From positions 1-44,793 of the IMG/VR virus record IMGVR_UViG_643348551_000008: a stretch of 44,793 bases of DNA, one strand, 5' to 3'. The first letter of the stretch is position 1, and each line of letters opens with the position of its first letter. Positions 27,179-27,332 of the stretch are shown piece by piece. The notes beneath the pieces were generated by a model. It had not been told where the DNA came from, did no database searches, and worked only from the letters and a program-made list of their open reading frames with translations. The position numbers and the translations under genes were made by a program. The DNA is from a virus (Duplodnaviria; Heunggongvirae; Uroviricota; Caudoviricetes).

Positions 27179-27253
27179 TGGAGCGGGTAGCGGGAATCGA
27201 ACCCGCATCATCAGCTTGGAAGGCTGAGGTAATAGCCATTATACGATACCCGC
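27179..27253 (-). tRNA. tRNA-Gly (anticodon UCC), phage-type
   Basis: 75-nt cloverleaf by hand: acceptor GCGGGTA/TACCCGC, anticodon stem TCAGC/GCTGA with loop CTTCCAA, T-loop GGTTCGATTCC, CCA encoded. Confidence 0.7.
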
Positions 27254-27256
27254 ATA

Positions 27257-27332
27257 TGGTGCCGACTACCGGAATCGAACTGGCGACCCGGTGATTACAA
27301 GTCAGTTGCTTTGTCTGCTAAGTTAAATCGGC
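27257..27332 (-). tRNA. tRNA-like gene, possibly tRNA-Thr (UGU) with imperfect stems (may be degenerate)
   Basis: Acceptor GCCGATT/AGTCGGC plus CCA and T-loop TTCGATT present; anticodon loop CTTGTAA but only 3 bp pair in the anticodon stem and the D-arm is atypical. Confidence 0.4.

Follow-up and report, generated by a model that had tools for sequence, protein, structure and literature searches.

A tRNA-Thr(UGU)-like gene in a lambdoid prophage of Escherichia coli: a candidate nuclease-escape allele in a host-derived thrU'-glyT' cassette

Introduction

The locus described here raises the question of whether a phage-borne transfer RNA (tRNA) gene that looks degenerate is simply decaying, or whether the changes that make it look so have a history of their own. 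We examined a 44,793-nt stretch of DNA (positions 1 to 44,793 of IMG/VR record IMGVR_UViG_643348551_000008; hereafter the window), the whole of which is a complete lambdoid prophage of E. coli. Two adjacent tRNA genes lie in its late region, a tRNA-Gly(UCC) gene and a tRNA-Thr(UGU)-like gene. An earlier interpretation made from the letters alone (the sequence-only reading) had taken the first as a clean tRNA of the T4 type. It had taken the second as apparently degenerate, either a pseudo-tRNA or an RNA with a non-canonical function.

Phage tRNAs have long been explained by codon usage. Recent work indicates that some of them replace host tRNAs that have been destroyed by defence nucleases. 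Within temperate lambdoid phages, the locus and its relatives make up a series of natural alleles, in which one host-derived gene ranges from identity with the host gene thrU up to many changes. On balance, we lean towards reading the Thr-like gene as a nuclease-escape-type prophage allele of tRNA-Thr(UGU), carried in a thrU'-glyT' cassette of host origin.

The tRNA pair is a copy of host thrU and glyT

The gene order on the K-12 chromosome is thrU-tyrU-glyT-thrT (tufB operon). The operon reads thrU-CCA-TCAAG, then tyrU, then CAGGAT-glyT, and all the prophage cassettes read CCA-TAT-GCGGG. This junction fits a deletion extending from the T that follows the CCA of thrU to the AT that precedes glyT. 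The junction sequence CGGCACCATATGCGGG is present in the window and is common to more than 119 IMG/VR contigs. The Thr genes of phi467 and of strain tcmA_3 are identical to K-12 thrU at 76 of 76 positions, and the Gly gene of phi467 is identical to glyT (75/75). Sister cassettes that match both host genes completely, taken with the host gene order, indicate a host-derived module. Judged from its sequence, the window pair is a prophage thrU'-glyT' cassette, a copy of the host thrU-tyrU-glyT operon from which tyrU was precisely deleted. The cassette differs from the host operon in its location in the prophage late region, in the lack of homology to the chromosomal flanks and of tyrU and thrT, and, in the window, in the changes of the Thr gene.

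The thrU'-glyT' cassette is common among lambdoid prophages. Phages phi467, JLK-2012, SerU-LTIIb and vB_Eco 606R7, 689R5 and 683R6 carry the same cassette with the TAT junction and in the same late-region position. Unlike those of the window allele, their records annotate the Thr gene. Most of these annotated Thr genes are identical to thrU or carry U16C/U20C only; of all the forms seen, the window allele has diverged furthest. The Thr gene of JLK-2012 has the 27-43 and 28-42 pairs open and carries A49G; it falls just under the ARAGORN default threshold, as the window Thr gene does.

The Gly gene is a tRNA by both covariance-model (CM) score and scanner call. It scored 65.6 bits on Rfam RF00005 (E = 3.6e-12, match 27253-27182; gathering score 29), and ARAGORN with default settings, run on the whole window, returned it as the single tRNA, tRNA-Gly(tcc) at 27179-27253. 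The first part of the sequence-only reading, a clean tRNA-Gly(UCC), is thus borne out by the scanner check that it had proposed. Its coordinates for the pair were also right; it left the strand unstated, and both genes are on the minus strand. The resemblance to T4 did not hold. The Gly gene is identical to K-12 glyT at 73 of 75 positions, and both differences belong to one compensated pair (C6-G67 to U6-A67). The T4 tRNA-Gly has the same UCC anticodon and matches at 65 of 75 positions. Host glyT is far closer, no sign of T4 ancestry was seen, and a T4 origin was rejected.

The change of pair 6-67 from C-G to U-A in the window Gly gene (27248/27187) has a counterpart at 27327 in the Thr gene. 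In IMG/VR it was seen in about 50 Gly copies (including alleles with other changes) and in several Thr alleles.

The Thr-like gene differs from thrU at 11 positions

The Thr-like gene reads GCCGAUU-UA-ACUU-AGCAGACA-AAGC-A-ACUGA-CUUGUAA-UCACC-GGGUC-GCCAG-UUCGAUU-CCGGU-AGUCGGC-A-CCA. It is identical to E. coli thrU at 65 of 76 positions, and the 11 differences are C6U, G10A, C13U, U16C, G19A, U20C, G22A, G42C, U43C, A44G and A49G. It is full length, with zero indels relative to thrU and with its loops kept; the marks of a truncation-type pseudogene are absent. The match to RF00005 covered all of the model (positions 1-71 of 71; window 27332-27260) with 43.7 bits against a gathering score of 29 (E = 3.7e-6).

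The predicted stems have 7, 3, 3 and 4 bp, not the canonical 7, 4, 5 and 5. The anticodon stem keeps three pairs (U29-A41, G30-C40 and A31-U39), and A27·C43 and C28·C42 are unpaired. The D stem keeps three pairs and has an A10·C25 mismatch, and the D loop, AGCAGACA, is without G19. A further mismatch, A52·C62, is shared with host thrU and is not new in this gene. The acceptor stem (7/7), the anticodon loop CUUGUAA, the T loop UUCGAUU, the discriminator A73 and the CCA end are intact. Among the near-universal nucleotides, U8, A14, G18, A21, U33, T54-Psi55-C56, A58 and CCA are present, and position 19 has A in place of G. The sequence has G1-C72, C2-G71, G35 and U36, which we take to be the identity elements of E. 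coli threonyl-tRNA synthetase (ThrRS). The minimum free energy (MFE) structure from RNAfold is uninformative about tRNA-likeness, as the MFE structure of thrU itself is not a cloverleaf.

Three other origins were considered and rejected. A chance resemblance to a tRNA is incompatible with the homology to thrU and with the CM E-value. A tRNA fragment left at an attachment site was dismissed on the grounds that both genes are full length and internal to the prophage and that the integrase gene abuts yecE, not a tRNA gene. A non-homologous swap of the 5' part of the Thr gene was likewise dismissed, the upstream spacer being homologous (20-33% diverged) in sister cassettes.

Prophage copies of thrU vary recurrently at positions 16, 20, 42 and 43

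We scanned IMG/VR for the cassette junction, a search that is blind to positions 42 and 43. It returned more than 119 contigs, 117 of which were usable. The Thr gene was identical to thrU in 66 of the 117 cassettes. U16C was the commonest polymorphism, found in 40 cassettes on 13 haplotype backgrounds, followed by U20C in 32; G42Y/U43C was present in 11 cassettes on 6 backgrounds. No other stem-breaking change occurred in more than 5 contigs or in more than 2 backgrounds. A scan targeted at Y42C43 returned 35 IMG/VR viral contigs with about 10 allelic backgrounds. The two substitutions were the sole differences from thrU in L141 and L148 (G42U/U43C) and in L133 (G42C/U43C).

The tRNA arrays in which the Y42C43 genes lie vary (Met-Lys(UUU)-Thr-Gly, Asn(GUU)-Thr-Gly, Met-Arg-Thr-Arg-Gly), and Lys(UUU) or Asn(GUU) is often among their members. 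Those with few other changes scored 59-64 bits on RF00005, and those otherwise identical to thrU scored 62-64 bits. ARAGORN with default settings called both of the Y42C43 alleles tested (TC-only and CC-only). By these scores and calls, the simple Y42C43 variants are good tRNAs.

In a comparison of 29 distinct alleles, pairing of the acceptor stem was complete (100%). Compensated changes were found within it at 5-68 and 6-67, and elsewhere at 13-22 (CG to UA) and at 49-65 (AU to GU to GC). The sole recurrent disruption was the loss of 27-43 together with 28-42, in 13 of the 29 alleles. This recurrence indicates that the 3-bp anticodon stem is a widespread phage-specific allele and not a private lesion.

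The chromosomal gene provided the control. In 5422 of the 5424 E. coli records, thrU and the 20 nt on either side of it showed 99% identity or more, and the prophage substitutions were absent from chromosomal thrU. Prophage thrU copies number about 1065 in the 5426 complete E. coli genomes. In a one-genome-per-species collection, the Y42C43 variant occurred among Enterobacteria only on an E. albertii prophage contig. The host genes, the annotated Thr-Gly pairs and nuclease-resistant phage tRNAs are already known. The papers searched did not yield the contrast between a host gene that does not vary and prophage copies that change repeatedly at 16/20 and 42/43; this family-level pattern is the most useful product of the analysis.

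The thrU scaffold was also seen re-used with new anticodons, UCU in SerU-LTIIb (L010, 5045-5117) and UUU in L088. The UCU copy is annotated as tRNA-Arg, also carries A31G and G24A, and lies directly after the methylase gene.

The variable sites coincide with determinants of nuclease sensitivity

Prophage P2 encodes the OLD nuclease, which cleaves host tRNA-ThrU(UGU) and thereby kills cells infected with lambda (PMC12445682). OLD cuts after C28 and C40, in paired CNG motifs at 28-30 and 40-42 of the anticodon stem, and cells are rescued by phage tRNA-Thr(UGU) genes, that of the lambdoid phage 21 included (PMC12445682). Resistance requires an altered CNG motif and a shorter anticodon stem jointly (PMC12445682). 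tRNA-Thr6, which differs from thrU at 12 bases, has G30C/C40G together with U43A, and tRNA-Thr21 has C28U/G42A together with a shorter stem (PMC12445682). Overexpression of thrU gave little or no protection, the phage variants protected, and the rescue was not due to competitive inhibition (PMC12445682). AriB, of the PARIS system, cuts tRNA-Thr(UGU) between positions 40 and 41 and touches U16/U17 with its second active site; its cleavage of tRNA-Lys is impaired when that tRNA carries U16C, the base that T5 has (PMC12409363). HepS of Gifsy-1 is a prophage nuclease that is triggered by lambda-type J and cuts tRNA-Thr(UGU) as a secondary target (PMC13043305).

The window Thr gene bears the sequence marks of OLD resistance: UGU with A37, a 3' CNG motif changed to CAC, and a lost 27-43 pair. 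The 5' CUG motif is kept, and its C28 is unpaired. Like the OLD-resistant tRNA-Thr6 and tRNA-Thr21, the gene has a UGU anticodon, is of coliphage or lambdoid origin and is close to thrU. It reaches the marks by other substitutions, G42C/U43C as against G30C/C40G with U43A in Thr6 and C28U/G42A in Thr21 (the latter according to the published description). In contrast to both, it has lost two pairs with the 5' CUG intact and has the extra lesions A10·C25 and G19A. The gene also has the D-loop mark related to AriB, U16C, the published effect of which concerns tRNA-Lys only. AriB-resistant T5 tRNAs (Lys, Thr and Asn; PMC11464382, PMC12409363) offer a second parallel: Thr(UGU) is an AriB target, U16C is shared with the window Thr gene, and, as in T5, Thr is accompanied by Lys(UUU) or Asn(GUU) in sister prophage arrays. 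By analogy with the published mutants, the window tRNA would therefore be expected to resist cleavage, and the match to the determinants is one of kind and not of exact substitutions. Taken over the family, the variable sites coincide with determinants that mutagenesis has defined for P2 OLD and PARIS, so that a conflict of the P2-lambda type could be tested with natural alleles.

Several observations stand beside this comparison. A short-stem Thr gene occurs alongside Lys(UUU) in L133 and L021 and alongside Asn(GUU) in L009; together these make up the published set of AriB targets, and the Lys copy of L133 has an altered sequence around the AriB site. The OLD consensus is found in glyT as well (L004, 874-948), with paired CNG motifs C28-A-G30 and C40-U-G42 plus A37, and the prophage copy is unchanged there. 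The window encodes a lambda-type J tail-tip protein at 4733-8230 on the minus strand.

A possible role for the cassette

We propose that the cassette would supply tRNAs for ACA and GGA, codons that are sparing in the host and more used by the prophage. The host tRNA-Thr(UGU) is cut in its anticodon arm by the defence nucleases P2 OLD and PARIS AriB, and conflict with these may have shaped the Thr lineage. G42C would change the 3' CNG motif and leave C28 unpaired, U43C would remove the 27-43 pair, and U16C would alter the D-loop contact of AriB. A tRNA of this kind may survive the destruction of the thrU product of the host, and ACA decoding could continue in lytic growth. If the window Thr gene is non-working, it would be a recently decayed descendant of such an escape allele.

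A stronger version can be formulated, which we advance only tentatively and regard as doubtful. By analogy with the published nuclease work, the prophage thrU copies would form a nuclease-driven allelic series (U16C, G42Y/U43C), of which the window Thr gene would be the extreme, still functional end, decoding ACA and resisting several nucleases. It implies that a tRNA can work although its anticodon and D stems have only 3 bp each and the G19-C56 elbow pair is missing.

The weak point of both formulations is the present state of the gene. Given A10·C25 and G19A, its present activity is uncertain: that it is an escape tRNA of weak function and that it descends from an escape allele but has recently decayed are about equally likely. 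Should the window allele be dead, this particular locus would be ordinary, and the family-level pattern would still stand.

Alternative explanations

The strongest competitor is a plain pseudogene, a redundant thrU copy drifting under relaxed selection in which all the changes are neutral decay without an adaptive history. We judge this explanation the less probable one, although the following observations fit it or weigh against an escape allele. With 43.7 bits, the window Thr gene has the lowest CM score of its family (sister copies 45.9-47.8 bits, JLK-2012 49.0, thrU 73.8). ARAGORN with default settings did not call it and returned tRNA-Thr(tgt) only when the thresholds were lowered to 95%. 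The NCBI annotation omits the same allele in all 13 genomes that carry it. Besides the window, the allele group takes in 4 IMG/VR contigs and 3 metagenome contigs; among complete E. coli genomes it is rare, with 13 carriers in 5426. G19A and A10·C25 are found only in this group and hit near-universal tRNA features; metagenome and IMG/VR scans for G19A on other backgrounds returned the same allele group only. Most sister copies within the group encode CUA and not CCA.

Folding predictions point in the same direction. The window Thr gene keeps 17 cloverleaf pairs, and random thrU mutants with 11 substitutions keep 17.4±1.5, with 75% of them keeping at least 17. Its cloverleaf free energy of -8.6 kcal/mol is typical of such mutants (mean -7.4). 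In the nearest-neighbour ensemble, an alternative helix (41-49/56-65) that does away with the T arm accounts for more than 99%, a dominance that was not seen for thrU, for YC-only alleles or for JLK-2012. Comparison with cassettes that share the methylase context showed the Thr gene to be more diverged than the adjacent Gly gene (7/76 vs 0/75, p = 0.01). With regard to the nucleases, G42C/U43C is not among the substitutions tested in the OLD paper. The AriB site U36AAUCA41 is identical to that of thrU, with no change at U39 or A41; in this the gene differs from the AriB-resistant T5 tRNAs. No Gam-type OLD trigger was recognised by Pfam among the window early genes scanned. Finally, neutral spread is conceivable, as recombination among cassettes could carry a variant over several backgrounds.

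Set against neutral decay, Y42C43 and U16C recur in prophage copies that are otherwise intact, and they coincide with experimental nuclease determinants. Within the allele group, double hits restore pairs at 13-22, 6-67 and 49-65. Under random placement, the window form with its one double hit has a probability of 0.13; the values are 0.014 for the commonest form and about 8e-4 for the form in the C311 prophage (three among 10 changes). The lack of indels and the untouched anticodon loop, T loop and identity elements also speak against simple decay. Moreover, the Thr gene is less diverged than the neighbouring spacer (7/76 vs 48/164 against cassettes sharing the methylase context, p = 5e-4). 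The allele is found in prophages with differing structural modules, the window being lambda-like and the C311 prophage having a P27-type terminase and a sheathed tail. The 3' end of the window Thr gene (G67, U65, CCA) is that of the canonical cassette, which probably reflects recombination with, or retention of, canonical sequence.

These results allow the second half of the sequence-only reading to be refined. Its description of the Thr-like gene (tRNA ends and T loop, a Thr UGU anticodon, a 3-bp anticodon stem and an atypical D arm) agrees with the sequence in every respect. The term degenerate suits a gene that default ARAGORN and the NCBI annotation miss, but not the short stem, which recurs in prophage copies and is no private decay. 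In the D arm, A10·C25 and G19A are private to the allele group, but U16C and U20C are the commonest polymorphisms of the family. The CM alignment is canonical and above threshold, but the score is not high, which goes half of the way to the refutation that this reading had named. A pseudo-tRNA retains about even chances as far as present activity is concerned, and the proposed non-canonical function is better specified as that of an anti-nuclease tRNA.

A second alternative is that both tRNAs serve codon supply only, boosting the expression of ACA- and GGA-rich prophage genes, with the Thr gene a tolerated, slightly defective copy that has no link to defence. ACA and GGA account for 12.8 and 12.7 per 1000 prophage codons, respectively, and each makes up 28% of the codons for its amino acid in the early genes. 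In the E. coli host, the usage of ACA and GGA is about 7-8 per 1000. The thrU-identical cassettes, more than half of those scanned, cannot be escape variants. In Stx phages, tRNA genes lie upstream of stx in the late region, and the late-region position of the cassette is parallel to this. For the many host-identical cassettes and for the window Gly gene, no role beyond simple codon supply is thus required. As a complete account it is improbable: it leaves unexplained why variation in the phage copies is focused at 16 and 42/43 while the host copy is invariant, and the barely protective effect of thrU overexpression against OLD, as compared with the phage variants, means that selection can tell the alleles apart (PMC12445682).

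The least probable alternative, which we consider very unlikely, is a non-translational tRNA-like RNA (an RNase P/RNase E processing signal for tRNA-Gly or the late transcript, a nuclease decoy, or an alternative-helix RNA): the 7/7 acceptor stem, the weakened D and anticodon arms in a family that retains the acceptor and 49-65 pairs by compensation, and the changes at 42, 43, 44 and 49 (window 27268-27292, tRNA 41-65), all of which add Watson-Crick pairs to the alternative helix and extend it from 6 to 9, would suit it, but a selected helix was rejected on the ordinary MFE of the allele (50% of random thrU mutants are as stable), OLD rescue does not operate by competitive inhibition (PMC12445682), and many sister cassettes pair tRNA-Gly with a normal tRNA-Thr, so that no special signal is needed.

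The nuclease-escape reading is the one that we favour. If it holds, escape mutations would depress the scores of biologically meaningful phage tRNAs, and annotation pipelines probably lose such genes as a result.

Prophage context and neighbouring genes

The features of the window that bear on the locus are collected in Table 1. The tRNA pair lies in the late region, with the methyltransferase gene upstream and a TerB-family gene and holin genes downstream. The order methylase, spacer, Thr and Gly is common to other prophages (L002, L010, L011 and L026). The promoter-like hexamers are the best-conserved blocks in a five-sequence alignment of a spacer that is otherwise 20-33% diverged; the number of promoter-like sites in the scan showed no excess over shuffled sequence. 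From these elements, the tRNA cassette may have its own transcription unit in addition to the Q-dependent late transcript. A CCGAGGA motif flanking the tRNAs was discarded, as its 2 exact matches in the window were not above chance.

Table 1. Coordinates of features in the window (strand and remarks where available)
Feature	Position	Strand	Remarks
Lambda-like head and tail genes	~0.3-23.5 kb	minus	
Lysis genes	~24.1-26 kb		
Terminator-like hairpin followed by T8	26880-26898	minus	~280 nt downstream of tRNA-Gly
tRNA-Gly(UCC) gene, encoded CCA	27179-27253	minus	anticodon 27220-27218; copy of host glyT
UAU spacer between the two tRNAs	27254-27256	minus	apparent scar of the tyrU deletion
tRNA-Thr(UGU)-like gene, encoded CCA	27257-27332	minus	anticodon 27299-27297; thrU-derived
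C43 and C42 (U43 and G42 in thrU)	27290-27291	minus	unpair A27 and C28; 3' CNG motif C40-A41-G42 becomes CAC
U13-A22	27320/27311	minus	compensated replacement of C13-G22
A19, replacing G19	27314	minus	G19 normally pairs with C56 in the tRNA elbow; private to allele group
C16 (U16 in thrU), D loop	27317	minus	companion change C20 at 27313
A10 (G10 in thrU)	27323	minus	A10·C25 mismatch in D stem; private to allele group
Promoter-like element	27407-27434	minus	-35 TTGAAA 27434-27429, 16-nt spacer, -10 TAATAT 27412-27407; ~75 nt upstream of Thr gene
DNA N6/N4 methyltransferase gene	27514-28560	minus	Pfam PF01555, E = 3.9e-45; immediately upstream of tRNA pair
Q, replication and immunity genes	~32-39 kb		
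Integrase gene	43480-44793		next to yecE

Other elements were noted outside the tRNA locus. An open reading frame (ORF) for an IS5-type transposase (326 aa; 29312-30292, minus strand; flanks at about 29150-30340) sits between a small TrmB-like ORF (28711-28908) and an OmpC/Lc-type porin gene (30690-31772, plus strand). In the sister prophage ETEC1749, the porin gene is present without the insertion sequence. A 9-nt tandem repeat, TTAGATATT, with 16.8 copies and 98% match, occupies 30361-30511, just upstream of the porin gene and adjoining the IS5 end. Rfam identified a C4 antisense RNA (84.3 bits, 36562-36649) and the Hfq-binding small RNA isrK (63.1 bits, 36674-36750) next to each other on the minus strand in the immunity/antirepressor region, a pair that is also present in the C311 prophage. 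A further Rfam match, to 'IS009' (227 bits, 383-581, minus strand), lies near the left prophage end, within the tail-fibre-assembly region.

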